DNA of 59,280 nt from Anaerolineae bacterium (GCA_027021705.1 JALUTT010000037.1:1-59280), one strand, 5' to 3'. Shown: positions 14,782 to 35,069, counted from the stretch's first letter. A program made the numbers and translations. The notes: generated from the sequence alone by a model not told the origin.

Positions 14782-15741
14782 CTACCCCGATGAGGCCCCC
14801 AACAGCCGTTGGAGCCCTTTCTGAAAAGCCTCCAGGCTCTCCGCCTGCGCCGCCTCCACCAGCAGGTCCTGGAGCAGAACAGCGTCCTCGATCTCGGCCA
14901 GCCGCTCGGCGATGGGCTCCAACGCCGGCCCCGTCGGGTCAAACCGCACCCGCAGCAGGTGCAGGATGGCTTCCCGCTGCCCTTCTAGGATCCCTTGTCG
15001 GAGGCCCTGCTGAAGCCCCTGCTGGAGCCCCTGCTGAAGGCCCTGCTGAAGCCCTTCTTGGAGCCCCAGCCGCCGCCCTTCTTGCAGCCCCTCTTCCAGA
15101 ATCTGCTTGTACCAAGGGGATTCCTTCAAAACCGCCATATCCCACCTCACAATCTGCCGTACTTGCTCCGGCTCCATCACGAAGCTGGCAAACAAGGCCA
15201 GCGCCGCCTCGACCTCCTCCCCCACCCCACGCTCCCGCAACCCCTCCACCCCCCGCCGGATCACCCCCTCGTCCGCCCCTCGCATCAGCGGCACAAAGGG
15301 CACCAGCCCCACCACCCCCGCCGCCACCACCCGCTCCGCCTCCAACTCCCACACCCGCACCACCTGGAAGTCCCGATGGGCCGTCAAGCCCATAAACTCC
15401 TGATGGTACCGGTCCGGCAATGCTACCCCCTCCCCCGGCGGCAGCAGGTAGAGCACCAGCGGGTAGGCCGGCAGATCGTACCGATCCTCCGCCAACGCCG
15501 CGTAGGCTTGCATCCGCCGGGGCATCCGCTTGTCCGCCCGCAACTGGACCTCGACCACCAGGACGAAGGAGCCTTCCCGCCCTTGGGCTCGTAGCACCTC
15601 ATCGCTGTGGCGCGTCAGGAACTGGAACTCTCCCGACAGCCGCTCCTCGACCCGGATGGTCTCGTCCCCCAGCAGCCAGCGGGCCCACTCCGTCGGCTCG
15701 CCGGCCAGCACGTACTTGCCCCCAATGTCCGCCCGGCCCAC
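14782..15741 (-). CDS. Rpn family (PD-(D/E)XK recombination-promoting nuclease-like) protein, copy 1
   Basis: SDEV..VVEVQ nuclease core, RRMQAY, ESPWY, EG/QQGL heptad tail, DUF4351-like C-terminus. Confidence 0.85.
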   Translation of the reverse strand: MGRADIGGKYVLAGEPTEWARWLLGDETIRVEERLSGEFQFLTRHSDEVLRAQGREGSFVLVVEVQLRADKRMPRRMQAYAALAEDRYDLPAYPLVLYLLPPGEGVALPDRYHQEFMGLTAHRDFQVVRVWELEAERVVAAGVVGLVPFVPLMRGADEGVIRRGVEGLRERGVGEEVEAALALFASFVMEPEQVRQIVRWDMAVLKESPWYKQILEEGLQEGRRLGLQEGLQQGLQQGLQQGLQQGLRQGILEGQREAILHLLRVRFDPTGPALEPIAERLAEIEDAVLLQDLLVEAAQAESLEAFQKGLQRLLGASSG

Positions 15742-16006: not shown

Positions 16007-17002
16007 CTACCCCGATGAGGCCCCCAACAGCCGTTGGAGCCCTTTCTGAAAAGCCTCCAGGCTCTCCGCCTGCGCCGCCTCCACCAGCAGGTCCTGGAGC
16101 AGGACAGCGTCCTCGATCTCGGCCAGCCGCTCGGCGATGGGCTCCAACGCCGGTCCCGTCGGGTCAAACCGCACCCGCAGCAGGTGCAGGATGTCCTCCC
16201 GCCGGCCCTCCAGCAGCCCCTGCTGAAGGCCCTGCTGGAGCCCCTGCTGAAGCCCCTGCTGGAGGCCCTGCTGAAGCCCCTGCTGGAGCCCCTGCTGAAG
16301 GCCCTGCTGAAGCCCTTCTTGGAGCCCCAGCCGCCGCCCTTCTTGCAGCCCCTCTTCCAGAATCTGCTTGTACCAAGGAGATTCCTTCAGAACCGCCATA
16401 TCCCACCTCACAATCTGCCGCACTTGCTCCGGCTCCATCACGAAGCTGGCAAACAAGGCCAGCGCCGCCTCGACCTCCTCCCCCACCCCCCGCTCCCGCA
16501 ACACCTCCACCCCCCGCCGGATCACCCCCTCGTCCGCCCCCCGCATCAGCGGCACGAAGGGCACCAGCCCCACCACCCCCGCCGCCACCACCCGCTCCGC
16601 CTCCAACTCCCACACCCGCACCACCTGGAAGTCTCGATGGGCCGTCAAGCCCATAAACTCCTGATGGTACCGGTCTGGCAATGCTACCCCCTCCCCCGGC
16701 GGCAGCAGGTAGAGCACCAGCGGGTAGGCCGGCAGATCGTACCGATCCTCGGCCAGCGCCGCGTAGGCTTGCATCCGCCGGGGCATCCGCTTGTCCGCCC
16801 GCAGTTGGACCTCGACCACCAGGACGAAGGGGCCTTCCCGCCCTTGGGCTCGCAGCACCTCATCGCTGTGGCGCGTCAGGAACTGGAACTCTCCCGACAG
16901 CCGCTCCTCGACCCGGATGGTCTCGTCCCCCAGCAGCCAGCGGGCCCACTCCGTCGGCTCGCCGGCCAGCACGTACTTGCCCCCAATGTCCGCCCGGCCC
17001 AC
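16007..17002 (-). CDS. Rpn family protein, copy 2
   Basis: Near-identical to copy 1; 12 aa longer in the QQGL tract. Confidence 0.85.
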   Translation of the reverse strand: MGRADIGGKYVLAGEPTEWARWLLGDETIRVEERLSGEFQFLTRHSDEVLRAQGREGPFVLVVEVQLRADKRMPRRMQAYAALAEDRYDLPAYPLVLYLLPPGEGVALPDRYHQEFMGLTAHRDFQVVRVWELEAERVVAAGVVGLVPFVPLMRGADEGVIRRGVEVLRERGVGEEVEAALALFASFVMEPEQVRQIVRWDMAVLKESPWYKQILEEGLQEGRRLGLQEGLQQGLQQGLQQGLQQGLQQGLQQGLQQGLQQGLLEGRREDILHLLRVRFDPTGPALEPIAERLAEIEDAVLLQDLLVEAAQAESLEAFQKGLQRLLGASSG

Positions 17003-17789: not shown

Positions 17790-19334
17790 CTACGGAACGG
17801 CCGGGCGTCGTCGCCACAACCAGAGGCCGGCCAGGGCGAAGATGACGACGACGACTGCCGCCACCAGCAGAGGGTGCCACCCCAGGCGAACCCCCTTAGG
17901 CGGAGGGACGGTCACCTCGCCCTGGAGCACCGCCGGCGCCGGCAGGGGGGTTGGCGGAGGCATCACCACCTGGATGCGCAGCGGCCCCCGGTTCGCCGGG
18001 TTCGAGGAGCCGAAGGCGGTCAACTTCGCCACCTCCTCCTCGGTGTAGCCCAGCGCTGCGAAGTCCACCCGGTGGTGGGGGCCGTGACAGGCCGTGCAGG
18101 GAAGGGCGTCTTCCCCGCCCACGATGCCGTGGCTGATCTGGAGGTAGATAGTCACCTCCTTCGGCTCCCAGGAGCCGCTGTAGGCCACCCCCGCCTCCCG
18201 CGCCCCCACCCTGATGGCCTTCTCCAAATCGCCTTGGGTGAAGAAGATGCCCAGCTTCAGGGGGAGAGGCTGGCCGCTCATCGCGTCCACCGGGATCACG
18301 GCGGTGTAGGGCTTGAAGGGCTGGATGCGGGCCGATTCGTCGTCCCGGCTGCCCGGCCAGGGCTGCCCCGGCTTGGTCGGCTGCCCGTTGTACCAGCGGT
18401 AGACGGGCGGGATCGCGTTGGGCTCTTCCACCTTGCTCACCGGCCAGTAGAGGTCGTTGACCGGATCGTGGCGGGACGGGGCCGTCCAATCCCGGTAGAC
18501 CAGCCCGCCGGTGCCCACGATGTGGCAGGTGCGGCAGTCCAGCCGGGTGTGGTCGTTGAGCAGCACGTTGGTGTGGGGTGCGTCCCCGTGGCACCCCTCG
18601 CACCGCAGGCGCTCCTCCGGGCGGTCCCGGCTCCACAGGGTGGGGCCGTAGCCTAGGATCCGGTGCTTCTCGGCCCGGTGGCAATCCACACAGACCATGC
18701 CGGCATCGGCGTGCACGTCCCCCTTGCTGCTCTCGCCGTGCTTGTCGGCGATGGGCGCGAAGTCCACCCCCCGCTTCAGGAGCGCTCCCCCGCCCACGTT
18801 GAAGTGGCAGCGCAGGCAGGTCTCTGCCGTCGGACGCTGGGCATTCCGGGCCGCCCCCAGGCTCCGGTCCTGGGGCAGCACCCACCGCCCCGCCTCGTCC
18901 TTCTGGGGGAAGCGGACCCCCAGGTCATAGACGGGGGAGTGGCAGATGAGGCAGTCCACCATCGCCCGCTCCTCCGGCGGCACGGCATCGGGGTCCTTGG
19001 GCAGCGGTCCCCCCCCAGGGTGGCAGCGCCCACAGCCCCCGGGGATGCCCAGCTCGGGGTTCAGGAGGCCCAGCCAGTTGATCCGGGCGATGGAGGCCGG
19101 GATGGGGCTGTAGTGGTCCAGCTTCTCCTCCCAGGTGTAGTGGACGCTGTGGAGGACCTCCTCCGTCGCCCCGGGATGGCAGACCTCACAGGTCTCCGGC
19201 CCCGTGTACTCCTCGATGTACCGGTGGGGCTCCGGCGGGTCGGCATAGGCCACGTTGACCAGGAGCAGCACCAGCACCAGGCCGAGGAGCCCCCCCAACA
19301 CTCCTTGCAACCACCGTCCCTTCGTTCCGCTCAT
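17790..19334 (-). CDS. Octaheme cytochrome c, tetrathionate-reductase (OTR)-like, membrane-anchored
   Basis: 8 CxxCH; DCLICH, CLRCH..GGG..KRG, DVH, ISHG..ALPCTACH pattern; signal peptide and C-terminal TM. Confidence 0.75.
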   Translation of the reverse strand: MSGTKGRWLQGVLGGLLGLVLVLLLVNVAYADPPEPHRYIEEYTGPETCEVCHPGATEEVLHSVHYTWEEKLDHYSPIPASIARINWLGLLNPELGIPGGCGRCHPGGGPLPKDPDAVPPEERAMVDCLICHSPVYDLGVRFPQKDEAGRWVLPQDRSLGAARNAQRPTAETCLRCHFNVGGGALLKRGVDFAPIADKHGESSKGDVHADAGMVCVDCHRAEKHRILGYGPTLWSRDRPEERLRCEGCHGDAPHTNVLLNDHTRLDCRTCHIVGTGGLVYRDWTAPSRHDPVNDLYWPVSKVEEPNAIPPVYRWYNGQPTKPGQPWPGSRDDESARIQPFKPYTAVIPVDAMSGQPLPLKLGIFFTQGDLEKAIRVGAREAGVAYSGSWEPKEVTIYLQISHGIVGGEDALPCTACHGPHHRVDFAALGYTEEEVAKLTAFGSSNPANRGPLRIQVVMPPPTPLPAPAVLQGEVTVPPPKGVRLGWHPLLVAAVVVVIFALAGLWLWRRRPAVP

Positions 19335-20404
19335 CGCTCACCTCCCTTGGCCTCGTGGCAGGTGAGGCATCCATCCAACGGCCACCCCTTGTGGTCCAGC
19401 GGCGCGGGGGCGATGAGGCCGTCCACGCCGTGGCAGAGCTCGCACCGGGCCATCTCCCCCTCGACGCCGTGGGCGGTGATGGGCATCGGCGTGGGGGTGG
19501 GCGGGGTGAGCAGCCGGGGAGGCGGCGTTGGGGTGATGGCGGCGACTCGGGGGAGCGTCTCCAGGACCACCGGCTGGTAGGGCTCCACCTCGGCGGCCCG
19601 CCGGGGCACCGTCGTGATGGCCGTCTCCTCGATGGTCAGGAAGCGCCAGATGCCCACGAGCAGGAGGACGGCGAGGAGGGTGGCGACGGGAACGTAGCGC
19701 CGTTCCCGGGCCCAGCGCCGGTCGGGAGGCGGGGGCCGATGGACCTCGCCCCGCCGCAGGCGCTCTAGCTCCATCGCGTGCTCCTCCTGCATCGCCTCCT
19801 CGTCCAGGTAGCCGGTGAAGATGCTGGTGTTGAAGTGGCGCAGGTGGACGAAGTAGGAGTGCCAGGTCAAGATGGAAAGCACGGCCAGGAGGGCCTCCAT
19901 CCCGTGGGCGGTCTTGGCAGCCGGAACGAACTCCCCCGGCAGGAAGCGGGTGGCGACGATGGGGTTCCACAGGATGAAGCCGGTGAGGGCCATCAGCGCG
20001 GTGCCCCACACCACCGCCCAGTACTCCAGCTTCTCGACGAAGTTGTAGCGCTCGAAGCGGGGCGGATGGGCGACGAGCCCCAGGCTGTACTTCACCGCCT
20101 GGACGAAGTCGGCCACGTCCTTGCGGGCCGGCAGCATGGTGGGCGACTGGTGCAGCACGTAGATGCGGTACCCGACCACGACCAGGTGGTAGATGGAGAC
20201 CAGGACCAGGACAACGGCGGCGGTGTGGTGGATGACGCGGGTCTGCTCGATCCCCCCCAGCGCCCGGAAGATGGCCACCGCCCAGCCGGTGTCCGGGTAC
20301 TTCTGGGGCAGGCCGGTGATGGCCAGAATGGTGAAGGAAAGCATCAGCAGCAAGTGCTGCACCCGATCCGAGAGGGAGAAGCGGAGATAACGGCGTGTGG
20401 TCAT
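19331..20404 (-). CDS. Cytochrome b (FdnI-like) fused to a C-terminal diheme c domain
   Basis: RFS..DRVQH, RVIHH, RYNFVEKLEYW, AHGMEA, WHSY; CELCH and CLTCH. Confidence 0.85.
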   Translation of the reverse strand: MTTRRYLRFSLSDRVQHLLLMLSFTILAITGLPQKYPDTGWAVAIFRALGGIEQTRVIHHTAAVVLVLVSIYHLVVVGYRIYVLHQSPTMLPARKDVADFVQAVKYSLGLVAHPPRFERYNFVEKLEYWAVVWGTALMALTGFILWNPIVATRFLPGEFVPAAKTAHGMEALLAVLSILTWHSYFVHLRHFNTSIFTGYLDEEAMQEEHAMELERLRRGEVHRPPPPDRRWARERRYVPVATLLAVLLLVGIWRFLTIEETAITTVPRRAAEVEPYQPVVLETLPRVAAITPTPPPRLLTPPTPTPMPITAHGVEGEMARCELCHGVDGLIAPAPLDHKGWPLDGCLTCHEAKGGER

Positions 20405-21531
20405 GACCTAGCCCTCCTCAGCCGCTTCCGCAAGCGCTGCTGGACGTCCAGGGCGATGTAGAGCAGGAAGAAACCCAGGACCGTCGGGATCAGGATTCGG
20501 TAGAACCAGGTGACGCCCGTCACGATGGGGTAACTCCCCCAATCGGGGCGGTAGTGCCCTACCCAACTGTTGGCGAAGCTGGCCGAGGCGTCGGGGTGGC
20601 ATTGGCGGCAGGTCTCGACCAGGTTGGACTTCACGCCCACGTAGCCGGCCTCCTCCGGCGTGAGGATGGCGTGGGCCCCGTGGCAGTCGGTGCAGACCGC
20701 CTTGTTGGTGGGCTGGTCTGGGGTCGTCTTCTCGAAGATGAGCACCGTCGTGCCGTGGAAGTCGGCCACGTAGGTGTCGAAGACCGCCGTGGAGATCCCG
20801 TACTGGGCCATCAGCTTCTTGTCGGCGTGGCACTGGCCGCAGAGCTGGGGCGACTTCAAGCGAAAGGCCAGCGTGCGCGGGTCTTCGATGGTGTGGGCCG
20901 GATGGCAGGTGATGCAGTTGGGCACCACCTTGTTCCCCTCGTAGAGGTCCCGACCGTGGATGCTGCGGCGGTACTCCTCGTAGATCCCGCTGTGGCACCG
21001 GTGGCAGACCTCGACGGCCAGGGTGCGGGGAACCTCCGGGTGCTTCTCGCGGGCGATCCAGCGGACGTCGTGGCCGCCGTGGCAGTCCACGCAGGTCGCC
21101 GCCTCCCGGACCCCGGCGGCCATCGCCCGGGCGTGCACGCTGTCCACCCGCTTCTGGGCTTCCTCCTCGTGGCAGTTGGCGCAGGACTGGCTGTAGTAGA
21201 TGACCAGGTCTCGGTAGTCCTGGACCGGCGGGTCGCCGTGGGGATACCCCCACAGGTCGCTGTGGCAGTCCTGACAGTGCACCTCCTGGCTGGCGTGATC
21301 GCCGTGGGCGGAGATGCGCAGCGCCTCGGCGTCCACGGTGACCGGGAGCAGTTCCCCGGAGGGGAGCACCATCGTCAGCCCCTCCTTCTCGTGGCAAGCC
21401 AGGCAGACCTGGTCGTCCATCGGCGGCGGGTCGGCCACCGGCGGCGGCCCCTCGGCGCCGACGGCCCGGACCGACAGCCCCAGCAGCGCCAGGACGATCC
21501 CCACCACGACCCCCCAACGTCGCAGGCTCAT
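20401..21531 (-). CDS. Nonaheme cytochrome c with C-terminal TM
   Basis: 9 CxxCH motifs, signal peptide. Confidence 0.9.
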   Translation of the reverse strand: MSLRRWGVVVGIVLALLGLSVRAVGAEGPPPVADPPPMDDQVCLACHEKEGLTMVLPSGELLPVTVDAEALRISAHGDHASQEVHCQDCHSDLWGYPHGDPPVQDYRDLVIYYSQSCANCHEEEAQKRVDSVHARAMAAGVREAATCVDCHGGHDVRWIAREKHPEVPRTLAVEVCHRCHSGIYEEYRRSIHGRDLYEGNKVVPNCITCHPAHTIEDPRTLAFRLKSPQLCGQCHADKKLMAQYGISTAVFDTYVADFHGTTVLIFEKTTPDQPTNKAVCTDCHGAHAILTPEEAGYVGVKSNLVETCRQCHPDASASFANSWVGHYRPDWGSYPIVTGVTWFYRILIPTVLGFFLLYIALDVQQRLRKRLRRARS

Positions 21532-23060
21532 GGCTGCACCTCCTCTTCCACCGGCTCCGGGACCTCGGTGACGATGACGTCGCGGTTGGCGGCCCGCTCC
21601 TCCGGCGCGACATCCGCCTCCGTCAGGAAGAGCGCCGTCTGGCCGTGGCAGGCGTTGCAGCGCTCGTTCTGGGGCGTGATGCGGCGCGTGTTGTGGGGCG
21701 TCGTGTACTTCCAGGTGGGCAGGTTGTCGTAGCCGGGGAGCAGGTCCTCCCCGTAGTAGCCGAAGAGGTCCGCCGTGGTCGGCACGTGGCGCAGGAGGAC
21801 GTAGTTCCAGGGCCGCTCCGGGCTCTTCACCGGGTTGCGCCCGATCTTGAAGGTCAGGGCCGAGGGGTCCGAGGTGAAGTAGGGAAGCCCCTTGTCGTCC
21901 CGGCCCACGTGGCAGTTGAAGCAGGACTTGTAGGGGCCTGCGGCGTGGCAGACCTGGCAGTCCAGGCCCTCCAGGTGGGTCTCGTCGTGCTGGGTGATCC
22001 CGTCACCCACCCGCACGGTGTCGTGGCAACCGCTCTCGGTGCAGGAAGGACGGGGAGCGCCGGCGTAGCGGGTGCCGTGCCCGCCGTAGTGGTACTCCTC
22101 CAGGGTGTGGCAGCGGGTGCAGGGCATCCCTTCCCGCTCCCAGTGCACGTCGGCGGGGATGCCCTCGTGCTTGCCCTTGTACTCGTCGTTGATGCGAGCG
22201 CTGTGGCAGCCGCCGCAGGTGGTGAAGACGGAAGCCACCCGCTTCACCTTGTGTCCGGCGATGAGCCCTCCTTCCAGGGCGCGGGGCCGGCTGACGTGGC
22301 AATCCCCACAGTCGGCGTGACACCCGATGCAGTGGGTCTGATAGGCCCGGACCGTCGCCGGATCGGTGAAGTCAGCGCCTCGGGCTTCCAGCACGGCCTG
22401 ATAGCCCCACAGCATCCGGTGCAGCCCCTCCCGCGCCTGCCGGACCAGCCCCACGTGGCAGGTGCCGCAGGCCCGCTCCGGCTCCTGGCCCGCCTTGGGC
22501 AGGAGCCCCTGGTGGGCGGCCTCCTTGTCATCGGTGTCGGGGGTCCCGCCGTGGCAGGCGATGCACCCCGGCTCGCTGTGCACATCCTCCAGGAACTCCG
22601 GATCCACCAAGACCTTCTGCCATACCTCCAACGGAGGTAGCCCTCCTGCTCACCCCTCCCCCGAGGTCATCTCCGACTTGGGCTTCTCCGGCTCCTCGGC
22701 CAGCTCCTTCAACCGCTCCTTGTCCGTGTGACAGGTGACGCAGTTCTCAGAGGAGGGAACGGGCGTCGGCGTGGCGTCCGGCGGAGGGGCCTGGGAGGAC
22801 ATCTCCCCTTGGGGGGCCGAGGCCAAGGCCGAGGGCCCTGCCCCCCCCGCCTCGTCGGAGGAGGGCCGGACGCCCAAGCGGCCGTCGGGTTGGGGGGCCG
22901 GGAGGTCCGCCCCGGCAGCCGGGCGGCCCCAAGCTTGGGCAGGCGCAGACCTCGGGCCTCCCGTCCACCAGACCGCCCCGCCGGCCAGCACCAGAACGAT
23001 GACCACCAGGGCGATCCACCCGCCCCAACGCCAACGGGGCATCCGCATTCCTCGCTGCAT
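21528..23060 (-). CDS. Putative selenocysteine-containing multiheme cytochrome c (510 aa, Sec137)
   Basis: ORFs 22650-23060 and 21528-22631 are in frame, separated only by TGA 22652-22650 (SGEG-U-AGGLPPLE); 10 CxxCH + 1 CX4CH; SECIS-like hairpin; AGGAGG RBS before ATG 23060. Confidence 0.75.
22623..22649 (-). promoter_or_regulatory. Bacterial SECIS-like stem-loop
   Basis: UGA, then 10 nt, then UACCUCC-GUU-GGAGGUA with a G-first apical loop. Confidence 0.65.
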
Positions 23061-23164
23061 TGACTGCCTCCTCACCGGCCGGGGGAGGGGAGTCCGGTCG
23101 GCCCCCCTTCCCCCGGCTTTTCCGTGGGGTTCGTGTCCGAACGGGATTCCGGCGTCAAGCTACC

Positions 23165-25204
23165 CTACTGCTGCACAGGGTAGTCGGGCTGGGTTTCGGG
23201 GTTGAAGCGCGGCTTCGCCAGCACGTCGTCGTCCTTCGTCCAGCCCATCATCCCGAAGAGCAGGTTCGTCGCGTCGTAGCCCAGGACGTTCAGGACGGTG
23301 GTGGCGATGCCCCCGGTGTGGCCCGTGTAGCAGTAGACCACGATGGGCTGATCCGGCGGCAGCTTCTTCAGGTTCTCCGGGTCGGCCAGGGCCTTCCAGG
23401 GGATGTTGACGGCCCCGGGGATGTGCCCCTTAGCGTAATCCTCCGGCTTGCGCACCGACAGGATGAAGGGGTCATTGCTCTCGTCGCCGTCGTTCAAGAT
23501 GTCGTAGAGGTCCTGGGCCTTGATGACCGGTGGCTTGTCCGAGGAGAGGTAAGCATCCACGGCGGCCCGGACGATCTCCTCGGGGGTATCCCCGCTCACC
23601 TCCAGATCCGGGAAGGGGTAGGTCTCCGTGGGCTCGTTGGGCTCCGTCTCGAGGGGGTAGTCGGGCTGGGTTTCGGGGTTGAAGCGCGGCTTCGCCAGCA
23701 CATCGTCGTCCTTCGTCCAGCCCATCATCCCGAAGAGCAGGTTCGTCGCATCGTAGCCCATCAGGTTCAGGGCCGTCGCAGCCACCGCCCCGGTATGGCC
23801 CGTGTAGCAGTAATCCACGATGGGCTTGTCCTTGGGCAGCTTCGCCAGATTCTCCGGGTCGGCCAGGGCCTTCCAGGGGATGTTGACGGCCCCGGGGATG
23901 TGCCCCTTGGCGTAATCCTCCGGCTTGCGCACCGACAGGATGAAGGGGTCGTTGCTCTCGTCGCCGTCGTTCAAGATGTCGTAGAGGGCCTGGGCCTTGA
24001 TGACCGGCGGCTTGTCCGAAGTCAGGTAGGCCTCGGCGGCCTGTCGGACGACCTCGAAGGCACTGGCCGCCGCGCCGCTCTCGACGGGGTAGTCGGGCTG
24101 GGTTTCGGGGTTGAAGCGCGGCTTGGCCAGCACGTCGTCGTCCTTCGTCCAGCCCATCATCCCGAAGAGCAGGTTCGTCGCATCGTAGCCCAGGGTGTTC
24201 AGGATGGTAGTAGCGATGCCCCCGGTGTGGCCCGTGTAGCAGTAGACCACGATGGGCCGGTCCGTGGGCAGCTTCTTCAGGTTCTCCGGGTCGGCCAGGG
24301 CCTTCCAGGGGATGTTGACGGCTCCGGGGATGTGCCCCTTGGCGTAGTCCTCCGGCTTGCGCACCGACAGGATGAAGGGGTCGTTGCTCTCGTCGCCGTC
24401 GTTCAAGATGTCGTAGAGGTCCTGGGCCTTGATGACCGGCGGCTTGTCCGAGGACAGGTAGGCGGCCACGGCCGCCCGGACCATCTCGGCCGGCACCTCG
24501 CCGCCCACCCGAGGCTTAGGCAGCTCGTAGGTCTCCGTGGGCTCGTTGGGCTCCGTCTCAAGGGGGTAGTCGGGCTGGGTTTCGGGGTTGAAGCGTGGCT
24601 TGGCCAGCACGTCGTCGTCTTTCGTCCAGCCCATCATCCCGAAGAGCAAGTTCGTCGCATCGTAGCCCAGGAGGTTGAGGGCCGTCGTGGCGATGGCCCC
24701 CGTGTGGCCCGTGTAGCAGTAGACGACGATGGGCCGGTCCGTGGGCAGCTTCGCCAGGTTCTCCGGGTCGGCCAGAGCCTTCCAGGGGATGTTGACGGCC
24801 CCGGGGATGTGCCCCTTGGCGTAGTCCTCCGGCTTGCGCACCGACAGGATGAAGGGGTCGTTGCTCTCGTCGCCGTCGTTCAGGATCTCGTAGAGGTCCT
24901 GGGCCTTGATGACCGGCGGCTTGTCCGAGGAGAGGTAGGTGGCCACCGCCTCCAGGACCGCGCCGAAGGCATCAACCTCCGGCTTGGGGGTGGGGGTGGG
25001 AGGCACCGGCGTCGGCGTGGGCGGGGGTGGCGTCGGCGTCGGCGGAACCGGCGTGGGGGTGGGCATCGGCGTCGCCGTCGGCGGGGGCGACGTGGGCGTG
25101 GGAGGCACCGGCGTCGCCGTCGGCGTCGGGGCTGCCTGACCACACCCGGCGGTGAAGACGAGGATTAGGGCGAGCAGGATCAGGGTCCACGATCTCCGCT
25201 TCAT
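23165..25204 (-). CDS. Lipoprotein with four rhodanese domains
   Basis: Lipobox FTAGC, Pro/Thr linker, 4x [19 protein letters not shown]. Confidence 0.9.
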
Positions 25205-25391
25205 TGGCTTCTCCTCCTCAGTGTGCTCTAGCGTGCTCTGCGTTCTCCGGGTCGGACCTCCGGGGTCGGGAAACGCCTCCCCATCGGGGGGCAACGAGGG
25301 GATGAATGTCCGACGGAAAGGGTGACATTCAACCCTTGCCCTTTGTACCACAGGGGCCTATAATCGTATAGTGATGTTTGTCACATATCTC

Positions 25392-25432: not shown

Positions 25433-25448
25433 AGAGGGGAGGGGAGTG

Positions 25449-26420
25449 ATGCTCAACCTGAATGACCTGGCCGTCTTCCTGGCAGCGGCGGAGACCTGCA
25501 ACTTCAGCGAGGCGGGGCGGCGGCTGCACCTCTCGCAGCCGGCGGTGAGCCAGACCATCCGCCGGTTAGAAGAGCGGTTCGGCACCCGGCTCTTCCGGCG
25601 GGATGGTCACTGCGTGCGCCTGACCGAGGCGGGCCAGGTCCTGGTGCCGATGGCCCGGGAGCTGCTGGTGGCGGCCAAGCGGCTGGAGGAGACGATGGCC
25701 TCGCTGCAAGGGGCGGTGGTGGGGGAGATGACCATCGGCTGCTCCACCTCCTCGGGGCGCTACCTGCTCCCCGGCCTCATCGCCCGCTTCCGCGCCCGCT
25801 ACCCCAACGTCCGCGTCAACGTCCACATCCACGCCCGGCGGGAGGTGCTGGACCGGCTTTTGGACGGGCGGCTCGGCTTCGGCGTGAGCAGCAAGCGGGT
25901 GGAGCATCGAGACCTGGAGTACCAGCACTTCTTCACCGACGAGGTGATCCTGATCGTGCCGGCGGACCACCCCTGGGCCGGCTACCGGCGGGTCTTCCCC
26001 GATGACCTGCTGGACGAGCCGATGATCCTGCGGGAGGAGGAGGCGGGAACGCGGGAGGTGCTGCTGGAGGGGCTGTTGGAGCACGACATCTCGCCGGACA
26101 TGCTCCAGGTGGCGATGGTTCTGGGCAGCGCCGAGGCCATTGGGCGGGCGGTGGCCGAGGGGATCGGCGTCGCCTTCGTCTCGCGGATCGCCGTGGCCCA
26201 GGGGTTGGCCTTGGGGCAGGTGGTGGAGGTTGCCGTCGAGGGGCTGGACCTACGCCGGGAGATCTACCTGGTGCGCAATCGGAGCCGGCCCTTCACCCGG
26301 GCCCAGGCGGCCTTCTGGGAGTTCGTGAAGGCCCTCCCCGAGGAGCTGGACGCGGGAACCTTCCCCTCGCTGGCCCCCGTCTGCTACACCCCCGGCGAAG
26401 GGCTTTCTGTGCCTATTTAG
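25449..26420 (+). CDS. LysR family regulator (CysL-like)
   Basis: NFSEAGRRLHLSQPAVSQ HTH; IGCST, REEEAGTRE, GSAEAI. Confidence 0.92.
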   Translation: MLNLNDLAVFLAAAETCNFSEAGRRLHLSQPAVSQTIRRLEERFGTRLFRRDGHCVRLTEAGQVLVPMARELLVAAKRLEETMASLQGAVVGEMTIGCSTSSGRYLLPGLIARFRARYPNVRVNVHIHARREVLDRLLDGRLGFGVSSKRVEHRDLEYQHFFTDEVILIVPADHPWAGYRRVFPDDLLDEPMILREEEAGTREVLLEGLLEHDISPDMLQVAMVLGSAEAIGRAVAEGIGVAFVSRIAVAQGLALGQVVEVAVEGLDLRREIYLVRNRSRPFTRAQAAFWEFVKALPEELDAGTFPSLAPVCYTPGEGLSVPI

Positions 26421-27371: not shown

Positions 27372-27632
27372 CAGTCCACAGTTCACAGTCCGCAGTCCTC
27401 AGTCCGTACTTGGTCGCTTGGTCGGGTGGTCACTTGGTCGGGTGGTCGAGTAGTCCTTGGTCCTCAGTCCTCAGTCCTCGGTCCATAGTCCATCGCTATG
27501 CCGCTATGCCGCCAGCCGCTATGCCGCTACGCCGCTACGCCGCTATGCCGCTAACCACTACGCCGCTAGCCACTACGCCCCTCGCCCCTCGCCCCTCAGT
27601 GCCTCGGCCCTCGGTGCCTCCCCCCGCCGGGC
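27372..27632 (-). repeat. Composite repeat block
   Basis: Same module order as 26419-26662. Confidence 0.85.
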
Positions 27633-30600
27633 GGCTCCCGGAGCCAGGGGGGAAGGGGTTGGCCGGTCGCCTCCTGCCAGAGGGGGTCGAACCGCTCCGG
27701 CCCCAACTCCTGCCGCCAGCGGATCAGCACTTCGGCCATCGCCCGTTGGGTTTGGGGCTCGATGCCCAAACGCTGGAGTAGGGCCAGACCGGAGACCAGA
27801 GCGCGGAGCGCATCGGCGTGACGCTCCATCGCCCACAGGGTTTGGCCCATCATCCCTAGGGTGATCGCCATACCCTGTTGGTCCCCCAGGCGCTCCTTGA
27901 TCGCCAGAGACTCCCGGTAGAGGCCCATCGCCCCCTCCAGGTCGCCCCGTTGGGCGAGGATGCCGGCCATCTCGTGGAGGGTGGCGCTCCGGCCCCGTTG
28001 GTCCCCCAGGCGCTCAGCGACCTCCAGCGCCTCCCGGTAGAGGCCCATCGCCCCCTCCAGGTCGCCCCGCACCCGCAGGATGTAGGCCATCTCGTGGAGG
28101 GTGGCGCTCCGGCCCTGTTGGTCCCCCAGGCGCTCGTCAATCTCCAGCGACTCCCGGTAGAAGCGCATCGCCCCCTCCAGGTCGCCCCGATCGGCGAGGA
28201 TGCCGGCCATCGCGTGGAGGGTGGCGCTCCGGCCCCGTTGGTCCCCCAGGCGCTCCAGGGTTTCCAGCGCCTCCCGGTAGAGGCCCATCGCCCCCTCCAG
28301 GTCGCCCCGATCGGCGAGGATGCCGGCCATCTCGTGGAGGGTGGCGCTCCGGCCCCGTTGGTCCCCCAGGCGCTCGACGATTTCCAGCGCCTCCCGGTAG
28401 AGGCCCATCGCCCCCTCCAGGTCGCCCCGTTGGGCGAGGATGCCGGCCATCACGTGGAGGGTGGCGCTCCGGCCCCGTTGGTCCCCCAGGCTCCCGTCAA
28501 TCTCCAGCGCCTCCCGGTAGAGGCCCATCGCCCCCTCCAGGTCGCCGTAGTGGCGCAGCAGCCAGCCCAGGTGGAAGCGAAAGGCCGAGGCCCGCCCCTC
28601 GTCCTCCACCCATCCCACCGCCCGCTCCAGGTCCGGCAGCATCCGCTGCACCACCTGGGCCAGCACCGGCTTCTGCCAGATGGTGCCGTAGGCGTGGGCG
28701 GCCAGGGCGGCGTAGGCCTCGCCAAAGGCGGGGCGCAGGGGGGCCAGCACCGCCTCCCCCGCCTTCGCCTCGGCGTAGGCCCCCAGCGTGGGGTGCAGCC
28801 GGTAGAGCAGCGCCCACCCCGTCGGGTCCACCACCTTCACCCGCTCCACCATCCCCCGGCGCCAGAGCCGGTGCAGCCACTCCCCCACCGCCTCCTCCGC
28901 CTCCCCCAGGACCGCCGCCACCACCTCCGGGGGGAAGGGGGCGGTGAAGAGGGCCAGGCGGGGGAAGCGCTCCTGCAGCTCCCGGGGCAGCGCCTCGTAG
29001 GAGTAGTCGAAGCAGGCCCAGAGGCTCTCGTGGCGGGCCTCCTCGCTCCAGGGGTCCTCCACCGTGGGCAGCCGGGCGGCCAACCCCTTCCGGAAGTCGG
29101 CCAGCGACCGGGGAAAGTCCTCGAAGGCGGCGGCCAGGAGGCGCAGGGCCAGGGGGTGGCCCCCCACCTGCCGGCTCAGCGCCTCCATCTCCGCCCGGTC
29201 CGCCCGCTCCCGGCCCGTCCCGGCGTGCTGGGCGAAGAGGCGGGCCCCCGCCGAGGGGGTGAGGCCGGTCAGGGGCACGACTTCCTCCCTCGGCAGGCCC
29301 ACCACCGCCCGCCCCGTCAGGAGCAGGGTGGTCTTGCCCCCCACGGCCCGGCGCAGCAGGCCGCCGATGGCCCGGGCCCTGGCCCTTTCCTCCTGCTCCT
29401 CGGCGCCCCCCTCCTCCCCCCTCTCCCCCTCCACCGCCCTCACCAGCGTCTCCGCGTTGTCCACCACCAGGAGGAGGCGGCGGGCCCGCAGCGCCTCCTC
29501 CACCCGGTGGCGCCACCGGCGCACCGGCTCCTCCGGGTCGCGGGGGAGCCCCAGGAAGTCGCCCAGGCGGGTCAGGAGCCGCTCCGGGGAGGGGAGCCGC
29601 TCCAGGGAGAGGGTCAGGACGCCGTCGGGGAAGGCCCAGGCGAAGCGGCGGGCCGCCTCCCGCGCCAGGGCGGTCTTGCCCATCCCCCCGCCGCCGTGGA
29701 TGGTGATCGCCGGCGGGCGGGCCTCGCCCGTGAGGAGGTCGCCCAGATCCACCAGCTCCCGCTGCCGTCCGACGAACTCCCCCTCCACGGGGGGGAGGTC
29801 GCTCAGGTCCACCCGCTCCGGCGGGGGCGGGGGCGTCCGCACCCGGGCCTGCCCCTCGGCCAGGGGGAACCGGGCCCGGGGGCGAGAGAGGCCGGTGTAG
29901 AGGACGGGGATGGCCATCAGCAGGGGCTCCTCCTCCAGGGCCATCCGGGCCCGGCGGACCGCCTCCTCGACGGGGTGGCTCCGGGCCAGGTAGGTGTAGA
30001 AGCGGGCGGCGAAGCGGCGGGCGGTGGCGTCGGGAACGGTGAACTGCATCCCCAGGGCGTAGGGGATGCCCTGAGCGACGAGGGCACGGGCCAGGCCGGC
30101 CAGGTCGGTGCGGGCGGGGGCGGCGGTGAGGCAGGCGTTGAGGAAGACCAGGCGGGCCTTGCCCCGCACCCGGCGGACGAAGTGGTCGGCGGGAACGGGG
30201 TGGGAAGCGCCGTTGGGCTGCTCGAAGAGCAGGAAGGCCCCCTCCTCGGTCACGGTGCCGTGGCCGGCGAAGTGGACGATGCCGGTGGCGACGTCGGCCA
30301 GGGCCTCATCCAGGGCGTCCAGGGTGGGGGGGAGGACCTGGACCAGGTCGTAGGGGGCGTCCAGGCCGGCGATGGCCTCCCGCAGCGCCTCCCACTCCTC
30401 CAGGACGGCCAGGGGCCGTTCCTCCGGCTCCCCCTGGAGGGAGAGGAGGGGGGAGGCGGGGAGGAAGAGGATGGGCAGGCGCTCCAGGCGGGCCTCCGAC
30501 CAGGCGGCCCGGCGTCGGTCAGGGGGGAGGCCCCGCAGGAGGTAGAAGTCCAGGGCCAGGAAGCGGGCACCGTCGTGGAGGAGCTCCCAGGGGATGGCGT

Positions 30601-30868
30601 CGAGGACGGGGTGGTCCAGGACGAGGAGGAGGGTGGCCCGGGGGTCGGGGGCGGCGGGGAGGGCGGTCAGCGCCTCGGCGGCGGGGCCGTCGGGGGGGAA
30701 GAGGGCGGCGTAGAGGGCCCGGCCGTAGGCGGCGGGGTCGTCCGGGATCACCCGCCCTCCCTCGGCGGTCGGGGCGATCGCGCCCAGGTCGAAGCGGTGG
30801 GCCGGGGTGCCGTTCACGGCTACCCGGACCTGGTTGACGCCGGTGGGGGTCAGGGTCAGTTCCAGCAT
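27596..30868 (-). CDS. CHAT protease + STAND/NB-ARC-like NTPase + TPR protein
   Basis: IPWELL, HFAGHG, LVFLNAC, GMQF; FVGRQREL, GGGGMGKT, LLVVDNAE, GHPLAL; six 40-aa TPR repeats. Confidence 0.88.
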   Translation of the reverse strand: MLELTLTPTGVNQVRVAVNGTPAHRFDLGAIAPTAEGGRVIPDDPAAYGRALYAALFPPDGPAAEALTALPAAPDPRATLLLVLDHPVLDAIPWELLHDGARFLALDFYLLRGLPPDRRRAAWSEARLERLPILFLPASPLLSLQGEPEERPLAVLEEWEALREAIAGLDAPYDLVQVLPPTLDALDEALADVATGIVHFAGHGTVTEEGAFLLFEQPNGASHPVPADHFVRRVRGKARLVFLNACLTAAPARTDLAGLARALVAQGIPYALGMQFTVPDATARRFAARFYTYLARSHPVEEAVRRARMALEEEPLLMAIPVLYTGLSRPRARFPLAEGQARVRTPPPPPERVDLSDLPPVEGEFVGRQRELVDLGDLLTGEARPPAITIHGGGGMGKTALAREAARRFAWAFPDGVLTLSLERLPSPERLLTRLGDFLGLPRDPEEPVRRWRHRVEEALRARRLLLVVDNAETLVRAVEGERGEEGGAEEQEERARARAIGGLLRRAVGGKTTLLLTGRAVVGLPREEVVPLTGLTPSAGARLFAQHAGTGRERADRAEMEALSRQVGGHPLALRLLAAAFEDFPRSLADFRKGLAARLPTVEDPWSEEARHESLWACFDYSYEALPRELQERFPRLALFTAPFPPEVVAAVLGEAEEAVGEWLHRLWRRGMVERVKVVDPTGWALLYRLHPTLGAYAEAKAGEAVLAPLRPAFGEAYAALAAHAYGTIWQKPVLAQVVQRMLPDLERAVGWVEDEGRASAFRFHLGWLLRHYGDLEGAMGLYREALEIDGSLGDQRGRSATLHVMAGILAQRGDLEGAMGLYREALEIVERLGDQRGRSATLHEMAGILADRGDLEGAMGLYREALETLERLGDQRGRSATLHAMAGILADRGDLEGAMRFYRESLEIDERLGDQQGRSATLHEMAYILRVRGDLEGAMGLYREALEVAERLGDQRGRSATLHEMAGILAQRGDLEGAMGLYRESLAIKERLGDQQGMAITLGMMGQTLWAMERHADALRALVSGLALLQRLGIEPQTQRAMAEVLIRWRQELGPERFDPLWQEATGQPLPPWLREPPGGGRHRGPRH
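27876..28546 (-). repeat. 120-bp intragenic tandem repeats encoding TPR units
   Basis: GTCCCCCAGG recurs at 27881, 28001, 28121, 28241, 28361, 28481. Confidence 0.9.
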
Positions 30869-31732: not shown

Positions 31733-33085
31733 AGTACAGCTTTGCGTAAATGTGTTCCTAGTCTTGACTAGCCGGCCAGATGGGGTATACTTGGGCCAGG
31801 AGGTGAACGATGCCAGGACCTCAGCCCAAGTACCCCATCCAATTGACGCCGGAGGAGGAGAAGGAACTCCGCCAATTGGTCAACTCTCCCAAAGCGCCCC
31901 AGGGCCTGGTGATGAGAGCCCGCATCATCCTGGCGGCGCACGATCATCCCGACCGGAGCAACCAGCAGATTGCCCGAGAAGCGGGCTGCACCGACCGGAC
32001 GGTCCGGAAGTGGCGGCGGCGATGGGTGGAACGGCGCAGCATCGAAGACCTGCCTAGGCCGGGGGCTCCCCGGCGTTTTCCCCCCTGAGGTGCGGGCCCA
32101 GGCCACGGCGCCGGCTTGTAGTATGCCCCAGGAGGAGGGGGTGCCCCTGGGGCGGTGGAGCTACGCCGAGATCGCCCGTCGGCTCGTTGCCTTGGGGTTG
32201 GTCGTTTCCATTGCCGTCAGCACCATCGCCCGCCGGCCGGCCGCCGAGAAGCTGAAGCCGTGGCGCTACCACACCTGGCAGCACATCTTGGACCCCCAGG
32301 CCTTCTTGGAGCGGGCTCGCCCCATCCTGAACCTCTACCAAAAGGCTCAGGCCCTGTGGGAAGAAGGCGTATGGGTGGTCTGTGTGGACGAGAAGACTTC
32401 CATTCAAGCTCGCCAACGGACACCTCCTCCCGAGCCGGCCATTCCGGGGCAACCGGTGCATATCCCCTCCCGTTACCGGCGTCGTGGGGCCTGGCAATTG
32501 TTCGCCGGATTGAGCGTGGTGGATGGGATGGTCTTTGGGCAATGTCGGGAGCGAAAGCGCTTCGTGGACTTCCAAGCCTTCCTGTTGGAGACGCTCTTCC
32601 CGGAGGCCTTGAAGCGGGGGGTTCGCACCCTGGTGCTCATCTTGGACAACAGCACCACCCACGCCCCCAAGCAGTGGGAAGGATGGCTGCAGGAACAACT
32701 CGAGACGGGGCGGTGGCCCTTCACCGTTGAGGTGCGTTGGTTGCCCACCAACGCCTCTTGGCTGAATCAGATCGAAATCCGGTTCAGCATCCTGCAGCGG
32801 AAGGTGTTGCAGCCCAACCATTTCACCGGCTTGGAGGACCTGGAGAAGACCCTTCAGGGTTTCATTGCCCACTACAATGAAACGGCCAAGCCGATTCGAT
32901 GGTCCTACACCGCCGAAAAGCTTGAACAGAAACCGGCGATGAACTGACTCGGTGGTGAATGCTCCCATCGTGCCTTCCGTGGACGCTTGAGGCAGGTCGG
33001 AAGCGTGGCCGGTTTGCTCTGAGCCTGCCTCTCACCGGTCCGCTTACCCATCCTTACTAGGAACGAACTTGTGCAAAGCTGTACT
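31733..33085 (+). mobile_element. IS630 family insertion sequence
   Basis: TIRs AGTACAGCTTTGCGTAAATGTGTTCCTAGT / ACTAGGAACGAACTTGTGCAAAGCTGTACT; TA duplicated at 31731-31732 and 33086-33087. Confidence 0.9.
31810..32947 (+). CDS. IS630 transposase (two ORFs, -1 frameshift)
   Basis: HTH ORF 31810-32088; slippery TTTTCCCCCC at 32076-32085; DDE motifs VDEK, LDNSTTH, SWLNQIE. Confidence 0.85.
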
Positions 33086-34886: not shown

Positions 34887-35069
34887 AACAGGGAAGAGGT
34901 GTTCGACCGCCCGTAGGCATCCAAACGGCTCGGAGGCAAGTATGTCCGTGACTGAGTGGAGCGACCACTCAACCGAGGCTCGTCCGTGAGTTATGGCGAT
35001 TGATGGGGAGGCACATCGAGGACGGGACGAGAAACAGCCATGCCCCACAATGGCCGGGAGGGACCCACC

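Follow-up and report, generated by a model that had tools for sequence, protein, structure and literature searches.

The first biochemical characterisation of multiheme cytochrome selenoproteins dates from 2026 and concerns MccSep, or ExtKL, of Geobacter sulfurreducens, a selenocysteine (Sec)-dependent multiheme polysulfide reductase that reduces selenite too (PMC13510729). In the same paper, MccSep is described as having five CxxCH hemes, a C-terminal Ig-like domain with Sec in the motif D-G-U-P, and a conserved Cys that is a ligand of heme 2. Sec-containing members are also listed for the OTR family, TIGR04315 (review PMC13188914). A third point of reference is DealDRAFT_1917 of Dethiobacter alkaliphilus, described as a multiheme cytochrome whose gene adjoins those of rhodanese-domain proteins and as up-regulated in thiosulfate-grown cells (PMC10376724). 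A comparable logic applies to a molybdopterin-type sulfur reductase with a rhodanese carrier: the extracytoplasmic carrier delivers sulfane sulfur, and the reductase that receives it is linked to the membrane and depends on quinol. Shewanella oneidensis OTR (PDB 1SP3), a multiheme enzyme with sulfur oxyanions as substrates, has an unusual Lys-ligated active-site heme. A 2026 inventory of prokaryotic selenoproteins includes three heme-related families, and none of them resembles the family considered below.

The window analysed here is a stretch of 59,280 nucleotides from an Anaerolineae bacterium (GCA_027021705.1, JALUTT010000037.1). On its minus strand, positions 23060-21528 form a single frame interrupted solely by a TGA at 22652-22650, and both the sequence and the ORF listing confirm what a preliminary description of this DNA had reported, namely two ORFs in one frame with one TGA between them. 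The first ORF (22650..23075, minus strand) encodes 141 aa with a transmembrane (TM) helix and the motif CVTCH; the second (21528..22631, minus strand) encodes 367 aa from a TTG start. When the TGA is read through from the ATG at 23060, which has a GGAGG (23071-23067) 6 nt upstream, translation yields the 510-aa product that had been proposed, with 10 CxxCH and 1 CX4CH motifs and with Sec as residue 137. The predicted gene for an 11-heme c-type cytochrome selenoprotein thus comprises 510 codons (21528..23060, minus strand), its homologues cross the junction in-frame, and its own stop is a TGA (21530-21528) that overlaps the ATG of the next gene. The protein's sole export signal is an N-terminal TM helix or signal anchor (residues 10-31; 22968..23033, minus strand), which is a helix in the AF2 model and lies where relatives have lipoprotein signal peptides. 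This signal is upstream of the TGA, in line with the earlier argument that only the upstream ORF could provide export. Also upstream of the UGA is heme-binding motif 1 (CVTCH, residues 107-111; 22728..22742, minus strand), of which C8, C11 and H12 are invariant in alignment A5, and the protein matches Pfam Cytochrome_C7 and Cytochrom_c3_2 above cut-off. In public annotation GenBank names the pieces "hypothetical", the family is called either as a gene pair or as a truncated 'hypothetical protein', the split into two having been anticipated, and JGI gives its members the wrong name 'thiosulfate sulfurtransferase'.

The UGA (22650..22652, minus strand), predicted to be read as Sec in the motif GEG-U-[AG]G, is strongly conserved. 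The family is large: a pattern scan that took a single genome from each species gave at least 565 related loci, of which the best 80 were examined. The motif GEG-stop-[AGV][GAP] is present in 82 of 87 related loci, and the stop is TGA in 82/82 and TAA or TAG in 0/82, so that the codon is kept in one frame, as the earlier reading required of homologues. Of the remaining five loci, four are on contigs that begin past the junction and one is a paralogue (L087) with TGG. The 82 motifs reduce to 78 distinct junction sequences, all from Chloroflexota and all with TGA. G35, E36, G37 and U38 are invariant in 79 aligned segments, and conservation extends from GEG before the TGA to [AG]G..PP.E.W past it. 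In an even sample of 401 Chloroflexota genomes, 11 junction-spanning matches were found, two of them in one-contig genomes, and 11/11 have exactly one TGA. Contigs from three runs of two other studies retain both the TGA and the hairpin downstream of it, and in one of these (X3) five of six differences, lying on either side of the TGA, affect third codon positions. A pseudogene is ruled out by the conservation across 78 distinct sequences, an assembly error by the independent contigs that retain the TGA, and a genome-wide reassignment of TGA by the gene's own termination in TGA.

Downstream of the UGA is a SECIS-like hairpin, UACCUCC-GUU-GGAGGUA (22623..22639, minus strand), which encodes LPPLEV. 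A spacer of 10 nt (22649-22640) is followed by the 5' arm (22639-22633), the loop GUU (22632-22630), which starts 17 nt after the UGA, and the 3' arm (22629-22623), giving the 7-bp stem and G-initial loop as claimed. The TTG called as start of the 367-aa ORF (22631-22629) does lie in this loop, as had been stated, but it reaches into the stem as well. Bacterial SECIS (bSECIS) elements are recognized by a G in a small apical loop that lies about 16-37 nt after the UGA, and the present stem-loop, just 3' of the UGA and with a G in its small loop, agrees with that description. Taken alone, the hairpin proves nothing, because the fold of the single sequence (71 nt) has a z of -0.04 against shuffled controls, no better than chance; the support beyond chance is comparative. 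Among 78 relatives, 96.7% of cells are paired, against 44-59% in slid controls, and pair 21-35 covaries (GC57/AU9/GU6/CG3) with a score that 0/500 shuffles reach. The covariation is confined to this one base pair, the other six being nearly invariant and hence uninformative in this respect. Synonymous entropy is 0-0.62 bits in the hairpin codons and 0.85-1.74 bits in flanking codons; codon choice in the stem is frozen (CCT 76/77, CCG 77/77, GAG 75/77), whereas elsewhere these amino acids use their codons freely (e.g. GAG 55/GAA 23). The LPPLE-coding hairpin is missing where the codon is TGG, as in L087, or encodes Cys. The proposed SECIS-like element is thereby sustained as a conserved, covarying hairpin, except for the suggested lower stem CAGGA/UCUUG, which forms in the single-sequence MFE structure but not in the consensus structure of the 78 relatives. 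No Rfam family matched the segment 21400-23300, even at E up to 1. Five other selenoprotein genes of the same genome (selD, two FDH-like, one YeeE-like and one Grx-like) carry hairpins of 6-8 bp, each with a G-initial loop of 3 nt, 18-33 nt after the UGA, a resemblance that is partly built in, as the screen demanded a G-initial loop. A genome-wide screen of open frames for UGA plus hairpin gave 525 candidates, mostly noise in this G+C-rich genome, and the sites used were those confirmed by family searches only.

The machinery for Sec is complete in the genome, which encodes selA (566 bits), selB (303.7 bits), tRNA-Sec (72.5 bits, anticodon tca) and a selD that carries its own TGA, so that all the genes for which a search had been recommended are present. 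selA was found in 35 of 41 relatives, among them four of the five genomes with a junction-spanning TGA homologue, and was not found in the fifth (G033, 88% complete); Sec use is very common in the class, however, and this count does not discriminate.

Homologues with Cys at the Sec position, another expectation for a selenoprotein family, exist. In the homologue P0122, which aligns over 407 aa (37% identity, E 2e-76), GAG-C is matched to GEG-U. Cys occupies the Sec column in 28 of 69 junction-spanning cluster representatives, and in the remaining 41 the column holds a different residue or a gap (W 8, A 5, S 4, Y 4, L 4 and others), so that it is not universally Sec or Cys. Cys, and not Trp, is the commonest replacement. 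At Bacteroidota/Ignavibacteriota loci the codon is TGC or TGT in 78 of 80. The scan for Cys-type loci used a single protein (P0159) as query, the alignment of diverse Cys forms (A6) being too divergent, and it added a further 299 loci. In a rhodanese-fused subfamily, Tyr (34) exceeds Cys (6), and 80 of 120 members are unaligned at the Sec column; folding, and perhaps some activity, can thus do without this residue. Judged by sequence, the family comes as a Sec form in Chloroflexota, a Cys form in Bacteroidota/Ignavibacteriota and a rhodanese-fused form with Tyr or Cys, the proteins of which are named from Desulfobulbaceae.

Direct support thus extends to the single frame, the conserved TGA and hairpin, the alternation of Sec and Cys, the Sec machinery and the linkage to rhodanese described below. 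We put at roughly 85% the probability that 23060-21528 is one gene, encoding a 510-aa membrane-anchored, extracytoplasmic 11-heme cytochrome in which SelB and the hairpin specify UGA as Sec137; that the protein is a genuine selenoprotein of some kind appears slightly safer still.

The ten further heme motifs form a heme-rich core (21531..22586, minus strand) in which the motifs are invariant. The AF2 model has a mean pLDDT of 71.3, with values below 50 in the Sec loop, and its closest structural match by VIA-align is 1sp3_A, that is, OTR (Z 9.2, rmsd 4.7 A, 273/436 residues aligned, model residues 158-507); the next match has a Z of 4.6, and the weaker ones (Z 3.5-4.6) are HAO, octaheme nitrite reductase, OcwA and the Mtr complex. 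Foldseek against the PDB found nothing at E up to 0.001, and the best hit of a PDB sequence search was a cytochrome c7 at E 0.09. The modelled core accordingly resembles OTR in fold, with 16% identity in the structural alignment. The two differ in that the aligned core holds 10 heme motifs here and 8 in OTR, and heme 1 and the Sec loop of the window protein lie outside the OTR-like part. At E up to 1 the window protein has no TIGR04315 match, nor does this model figure among the 25 most-matched NCBIfam families of 46 family members.

The window protein parallels MccSep/ExtKL in several respects. Both are extracytoplasmic multiheme c-type cytochromes with genes split in annotation by an in-frame UGA that a SECIS-like hairpin follows, both have a Gly-flanked Sec on a mobile loop, Cys-type counterparts exist for both, and both clusters encode a lipoprotein that resembles rhodanese (in Geobacter, ExtH). 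The two differ in that there is no detectable sequence relation: at E up to 1, NF040886 (ExtKL; cut-off 250 bits) does not match the window protein, and it is likewise missing from the 25 most-matched NCBIfam families of the 46 members. The window protein has 11 hemes and MccSep 5; it is without the Ig-like C-terminal domain and the conserved heme-ligating Cys. Its Sec is near the N-terminus (137 of 510, GEG-U-GG), whereas that of MccSep is near the C-terminus (U325, DGUP), and its hosts are Chloroflexota rather than Desulfobacterota/Nitrospirota. All invariant Cys residues of the family are within heme motifs, and the His/Cys-ligated heme that partners Sec in MccSep is therefore without a counterpart. 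There are 11 conserved non-motif His residues for 11 hemes, so that no catalytic heme stands out in the sequence as obviously open. ExtKL, which the preliminary description had cited as precedent, thus serves as a functional precedent but not as a relative, and from these comparisons the window family looks like an independent invention. Sulfur chemistry is proven for MccSep/ExtKL and would be an extrapolation for the window protein.

DealDRAFT_1917 was likewise mis-named 'thiosulfate sulfurtransferase' before, as JGI names window-family members, a likeness of description that offers a lead only; a locus scan with P0122 recovered L191 as its single full-length relative, the rest being weak matches to heme motifs in general, and no record from Dethiobacter was among them. 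The molybdopterin-type system differs in its reductase, which is not a multiheme selenoprotein, and has no homology to the present one. NCBIfam has no model for the family, and it is not described in the literature covered.

The constant companion of the cytochrome is a rhodanese. Upstream of it in the window is a gene for a lipoprotein (23165..25207, minus strand) with the lipobox FTAGC after the ATG at 25207 and four rhodanese domains with CYTGHTG loops (Pfam Rhodanese, four stretches, E 4e-74). A rhodanese is upstream of, or fused to, the cytochrome in 67 of 86 Sec-type loci and downstream of it in 79 of 80 Cys-type loci, and it is fused at the C-terminus in proteins of the P0122 type. By sequence, this is a previously unnamed family with a rhodanese sulfurtransferase as constant partner, and the gene fusions suggest that the two may bind directly. 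Downstream on the minus strand are a multiheme cytochrome of 376 aa with a C-terminal TM segment (20401..21531), whose start overlaps the selenoprotein stop, a membrane cytochrome b of the FdhG/Ni_hydr_CYTB type with a C-terminal c-heme motif (19331..20404), which is likely to be the quinol link, and a third multiheme cytochrome of the operon, of 514 aa (17790..19334). The counterparts of these genes occur in 15, 16 and 15 of 86 related loci, respectively, and the electron route is consequently not a feature of the family. A LysR-type regulator (25446..26420, plus strand) is transcribed divergently next to the operon and, from its position, may belong to the system.

Regarding function, the likely role would be quinol-linked reduction of sulfane sulfur supplied by rhodanese. 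Directed by the hairpin, which begins 10 nt further downstream, SelB would decode the UGA as Sec137 and thereby place Sec on a Gly-rich and flexible loop (GEG-U-GG), flanked by heme 1 and the ten-heme OTR-like core. The lipoprotein rhodanese would take up sulfane sulfur derived from polysulfide, thiosulfate or tetrathionate as a Cys persulfide, which the selenolate would attack to form an Se-S adduct. Electrons from menaquinol would pass through the cytochrome b and the two further multiheme cytochromes to the heme chain, and would there reduce the adduct to sulfide. In this scheme we infer the insertion of selenium, the substrate, the direction of electron flow and the direct transfer from rhodanese to Sec, and for reductive turnover of sulfane sulfur as the chemistry the odds seem a little short of even.

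Oxidation is the better of the alternatives, though an unlikely one. A selenoprotein oxidising thiosulfate, sulfide or sulfane sulfur by a logic like that of TsdA or SoxAX would send electrons via the heme chain and cytochrome b into the quinone pool, and rhodanese would donate or remove sulfur. Multiheme sulfur enzymes can work both ways, and the authors of MccSep note a relation to the reverse TsdA/SoxAX reaction (PMC13510729); nor do the cytochrome b and multiheme partners of the operon carry information on direction, and the runs with this DNA bear the label hydrothermal vent metagenome, an environment in which reduced sulfur is abundant. However, NCBIfam and Pfam reveal no similarity to SoxAX or TsdA, the conserved heme-ligating Cys is absent, and both OTR, which is nearest in fold, and MccSep, which is nearest as a functional precedent, are reductases.

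Slightly less probable is a selenoprotein with a substrate other than sulfur, be it selenite or tellurite, nitrite or hydroxylamine (as in OTR/ONR/HAO), or metals reached by extracellular electron transfer. In its favour, ExtM, of the 'selenite/tellurite reduction operon', has weak local NCBIfam matches in 39 of 46 members (best E 6.3e-11, far below cut-off), and the Geobacter ext operon is named for selenite/tellurite reduction; the weaker fold matches, from HAO to the Mtr complex, and the reduction of selenite by MccSep (PMC13510729) are also compatible with it. The ExtM matches, though, span only about 50 residues of a c7-like stretch, and the rhodanese linkage, which recurs across three phyla and in three arrangements of the genes, speaks for sulfane sulfur or its selenium analogue. 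Chloroflexota are mostly single-membraned, and outer-membrane conduit genes are absent.

Two readings that dispense with Sec are very improbable. Had the locus two separate genes, translation would stop at the TGA, and the hairpin, with its GGAGG and TTG, would mediate translational coupling or re-initiation of a 10-heme cytochrome. Gene callers and GenBank do annotate two pieces, a GGAGG lies 10 nt upstream of the TTG in the window, and the single-sequence fold is unremarkable. Yet the GGAGG is not conserved (spacer codons vary), the GEG before the stop is invariant and the stop is never TAA or TAG at the 82 junctions, the downstream product would be without an export signal although 10 covalent hemes must be attached outside the cytoplasm, homologues with Cys or Trp codons are single uninterrupted proteins, and N-terminal rhodanese fusions place the TGA up to ~1000 codons into one frame. 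Read-through without Sec, by near-cognate insertion of Trp or Cys or by local recoding with a hairpin that merely slows termination, can appeal to Trp in L087 and in 8 of 69 representatives, but TGA is an ordinary stop in this genome, including at the end of this gene, the Sec machinery is complete, Cys prevails over Trp as replacement, and the hairpin matches those of the selD, FDH-like, YeeE-like and Grx-like genes in place, size and 3-nt G-initial loop.

A wider and tentative proposal is that the family represents a second, independent invention of a selenium-dependent multiheme sulfur reductase, in which the N-terminal arm, flexible and rich in Gly, would use its Sec or Cys to carry sulfane sulfur from the persulfide of rhodanese to the ten-heme core with its OTR-like fold. 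It would then comprise Sec forms in Chloroflexota, Cys forms in Bacteroidota/Ignavibacteriota/Calditrichota, and rhodanese-fused forms in Desulfobulbia, including the sulfur disproportionator Desulfocapsa sulfexigens. If true, these phyla would have in it a non-molybdenum enzyme, missing until now, for the respiration or disproportionation of polysulfide, thiosulfate or elemental sulfur, so far masked by split gene calls and by the 'sulfurtransferase' label. As the family is consistently truncated in public annotation, it is missed by Chloroflexota selenoproteome counts and by metabolic reconstructions of sulfur and electron transfer, and a Sec-flagged family model would mend hundreds of gene calls. 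The natural series of Sec, Cys, Tyr and Trp at one position could probe what selenium contributes to heme-linked chalcogen chemistry. The linkage to rhodanese, whether upstream, downstream or fused at either end, is unusually strong, and it leads to a testable hypothesis of sulfur respiration in single-membraned Chloroflexota and in phyla without obvious Psr/Phs enzymes.

In the ORF list, the minus-strand gene at 21528..23060 appears as two pieces, an upstream ORF of 141 aa (22650..23075), whose N-terminus is hydrophobic and which holds a single CVTCH, and a downstream ORF of 367 aa (21528..22631) with a TTG start and without a signal peptide. Both are in the same frame, and the sole separator is the TGA at 22652-22650. 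The probable start is the ATG at 23060, which has GGAGG six bases to its 5' side; from this codon the read-through product comprises 510 residues, with the TGA as codon 137, ten CxxCH motifs and one CX4CH; its length and the position of the TGA are exactly those of the preliminary description. The downstream piece (351-367 aa) is named 'hypothetical protein' or 'cytochrome c3 family protein' in GenBank and 'thiosulfate/3-mercaptopyruvate sulfurtransferase' by JGI, the latter presumably because of relatives fused to rhodanese. The gene is, with a probability of about 0.9, a selenoprotein gene, a call about as strong as sequence analysis permits; the earlier reading as a hidden multiheme selenoprotein stands on the conservation of the TGA, the hairpin that follows it, the alternation of Sec and Cys, and the Sec machinery of the genome.

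When the read-through protein was searched against 41 related genomes, matches were found in eight, and five crossed the junction (in the source genome, G004, G014, G019 and G033), each with one in-frame TGA; one TAA was also counted in G019, and the remaining matches were weak or began downstream of the junction. A pattern scan with one genome per species yielded at least 599 stretches, at least 565 of them encoding relatives, and the best 80 of these relatives were all from Chloroflexota MAGs (Anaerolineae, Caldilineales, Ardenticatenales, Thermoflexales and Dehalococcoidia). Among 87 loci inspected, 82 carried GEG-stop-[AGV][GAP], and the stop was TGA in all 82; of the other five, four are on contigs that begin 3' of the junction and one, L087, has TGG. 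Since some records appear in both searches, the junction is represented by 78 distinct 60-nt sequences rather than 82. In a separate even sample of 401 genomes of the phylum, matches occurred in 10, and all 11 that span the junction had exactly one TGA, two of them in single-contig genomes; a twelfth covered the post-junction part only. The TGA and the hairpin are also kept in contigs from three other sequencing runs (two studies besides the probable source), and in one of these contigs, X3, five of six differences from the window fall at third codon positions, upstream of the TGA as well as downstream of it. Alignment of 79 junction segments shows no variation in the first heme motif or in G-E-G-U. 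At L049, L052, L053, L099, L103, L109 and other loci the Sec-type cytochrome is fused at its N-terminus to one or several rhodanese domains in one continuous frame, so that the UGA comes only after 400 to about 1000 codons; the frame of L053 is 1498 codons long. A stop that is TGA every time, preceded by invariant residues and placed up to about 1000 codons deep, is unlike an ordinary terminator. At another locus, L026 (G033:C301, 133-2718), the frame extends upstream into a further multiheme region; it has 21 CxxCH motifs, reaches the contig end, and has its TGA 493 codons in.

The alternation of Sec and Cys among homologues is a classical selenoprotein signature, and it is present here. A profile of the junction segment run against 1.84 billion cluster representatives gave 494 proteins at E <= 0.001, the best 150 of which were aligned with earlier full-length matches (158 sequences). 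Sixty-nine of these run across the junction, and at the Sec column they have a gap or a sense residue: Cys in 28, Trp in 8, Ala in 5, Ser, Tyr and Leu in 4 each, Val and Pro in 3 each, and others in 10. P0122, a representative of a cytochrome-rhodanese fusion type, shows 37% identity in an alignment of 407 residues (E 2e-76), in which GAG-C faces GEG-U and the spacing from the Cys to the next conserved block is identical. The largest Cys group, represented by P0159, comprises 299 loci, and its first ten heme motifs are spaced in the same way; among the best 80 of these loci, from Bacteroidota, Ignavibacteriota and Calditrichales, the codon is TGC or TGT, flanked as GG-C-GG, in 78. In a third group, in which rhodanese domains are fused C-terminally to the cytochrome (named members are Desulfobulbaceae, Desulfofustis, Thermodesulfobacteriota and Desulfocapsa sulfexigens), the column holds Tyr in 34 and Cys in 6 of 120 proteins, the other 80 being unaligned. 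With other residues found as well, the position is not indispensable over the superfamily as a whole, which counts against a strictly essential catalytic role. A Trp paralogue (TGG, L087:1092-1166) without the hairpin and a TGA-type copy occur together in one MAG, that of L072. The short metagenomic proteins P0134, P0144, P0149 and P0128 keep GEG and part of LPPLE with R, S, P or H at the column, and could be single-base TGA variants, sequencing errors or gene-caller artefacts. A full-length relative of P0122 (L191:187-2232; 38% identity, residues 23-713) comes from a 5-kb contig (stated coverage 0.43) in a MAG assigned to Promethearchaeota (Asgard), and could reflect a binning artefact or transfer.

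Ten bases after the TGA lies the hairpin UACCUCC-GUU-GGAGGUA (22639-22623, minus strand), and the annotated TTG start is within its loop and stem. Its stability as a single sequence is at the level of shuffled sequences (z -0.04), and in a genome this rich in G+C such a hairpin is meaningless without comparison across relatives. This comparison bears out the 7-bp stem: with it imposed, 96.7% of cells pair, versus 44-59% after a shift of the 3' arm by one to three columns. The consensus fold of the 78 junction sequences contains the upper stem only, and the lower stem CAGGA/UCUUG that had been proposed is not conserved. One pair covaries (G-C 57, A-U 9, G-U 6, C-G 3, unpaired 3), with a score equalled in none of 500 shuffles; the six other pairs are nearly invariant and give no information for or against. 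Synonymous codon usage is the stronger evidence. Stem codons are almost fixed (CCT 76/77, CCG 77/77, TTG 63/67, GAG 75/77, GCA 53/59), while the same amino acids a few codons off the stem use codons freely (GAG 55, GAA 23; four Gly and four Val codons), and synonymous entropy is 0-0.62 bits in the stem versus 0.85-1.74 bits outside. The peptide LPPLE[AV] thus for the most part mirrors the needs of the RNA; peptide and hairpin are both lost where the codon is TGG (L087) or Cys.

The source genome, 94.9% complete, encodes the Sec genes sought: selA (566 bits), selB (303.7 bits), selD, which carries its own in-frame TGA, and a tRNA-Sec (72.5 bits; ARAGORN anticodon tca). Other single-TGA genes of known families in this genome have stems of 6-8 bp and 3-nt, G-initial loops that start 18-33 nt after the UGA: GUU in selD, GUC and GGC in two formate-dehydrogenase-like genes, and GGU in both a YeeE/Sulf_transp gene and a glutaredoxin-like gene (UGDC). 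These five sites are at C5:63274-63276 (+), C56:109962-112946 (+), C2:39130-39132 (-), C171:29973-29975 (-) and C41:5488-6420 (+). The cytochrome hairpin (7 bp, GUU, 17 nt) fits this set, a likeness partly built in as regards the loop, since the screen demanded an initial G.

The gene stands second in a compact operon on the minus strand, whose stops and starts overlap. It follows a four-domain rhodanese lipoprotein gene (23165-25207) and precedes genes for a multiheme cytochrome of 376 aa anchored at its C-terminus, an FdhG/Ni_hydr_CYTB-type cytochrome b and a multiheme cytochrome of 514 aa; a divergent LysR gene lies upstream. Just downstream of the operon, minus-strand ORFs of 319 and 331 aa (14782-15741 and 16007-17002) each have as their sole match a weak Yae1_N hit below threshold, placed identically in both, and may be paralogues. 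Elsewhere in the window, a 1090-aa protein (27596-30868, minus strand) unites a CHAT protease-like domain with a NACHT/AAA NTPase and numerous TPR repeats, a layout that recalls systems of conflict or signalling. A DDE_3 superfamily transposase carrying an HTH_32 domain (31970-32947, plus strand) marks an insertion sequence within a few kb of the operon, and at 35040-37346 (plus strand) FG-GAP repeats are fused to a Ser/Thr protein kinase. Rhodanese is the sole constant partner among relatives. Of 86 Sec-type loci, 67 have it upstream or fused N-terminally, and several others have almost no upstream flank; it is directly downstream at 79 of the best 80 of 299 Cys-type loci and C-terminally fused in the third group. 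Cytochrome b and the extra cytochromes are present at 15-16 of the 86 Sec-type loci. That the rhodanese and the cytochrome occur fused at both termini and as neighbours in both orders, in several phyla, is a strong argument that they act together.

Pfam recognizes only generic c7/c3 cytochrome domains in the protein. NCBIfam has no model for the family, and the window protein matches nothing there near cut-off; among the 25 NCBIfam families most often matched by 46 full-length members, ExtKL and the octaheme tetrathionate reductase (OTR) family are absent, and 39 of the 46 have a short sub-threshold match to ExtM. An AlphaFold2 model built from the 46-sequence alignment (mean pLDDT 71.3, pTM 0.66) has a transmembrane helix at residues 10-31, then a disordered linker, and a Sec loop (134-142) below pLDDT 50. 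Foldseek returned nothing significant for this model; in an exhaustive VIA-align search the Shewanella OTR (1SP3) stood alone on top (Z 9.2, rmsd 4.7 A, 273 residues, model 158-507), followed by HAO (Z 4.6). The predicted architecture is an anchor, a linker, heme 1, a Gly-rich Sec loop and a ten-heme core of OTR-like fold; the fold is held in common with OTR, but the family model is not.

The table of a 2026 review includes, as heme-related selenoproteins, ExtKL, a GSU2204-family CXXCH protein and OTR-family octahemes (PMC13188914). The BSepDB paper does not mention cytochromes, and literature searches found no description of this Sec multiheme cytochrome family. A multiheme protein of Dethiobacter, encoded next to rhodanese genes, formerly misannotated as a sulfurtransferase and up-regulated on thiosulfate, is by its description a candidate relative (PMC10376724). 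In MccSep (ExtKL), the Geobacter polysulfide reductase, Sec attacks polysulfide or selenite and the heme chain reduces the adduct, and the available text places that family in Desulfobacterota and Nitrospirota, with no mention there of Chloroflexota (PMC13510729). By analogy with MccSep and with rhodanese-type sulfur carriers, the rhodanese would take up sulfane sulfur, Sec-137 on its flexible loop would receive it as a Se-S intermediate, and the hemes, with the quinol pool as electron source in this organism, would reduce this to sulfide; such reductive turnover of sulfane sulfur is proposed tentatively, at slightly less than even odds. The window protein would resemble MccSep in the outline of its working, but has none of the features of MccSep family membership. 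As it also leaves the OTR family model unmatched, it is placed in a new multiheme selenoprotein family, one that is probably a convergent solution.
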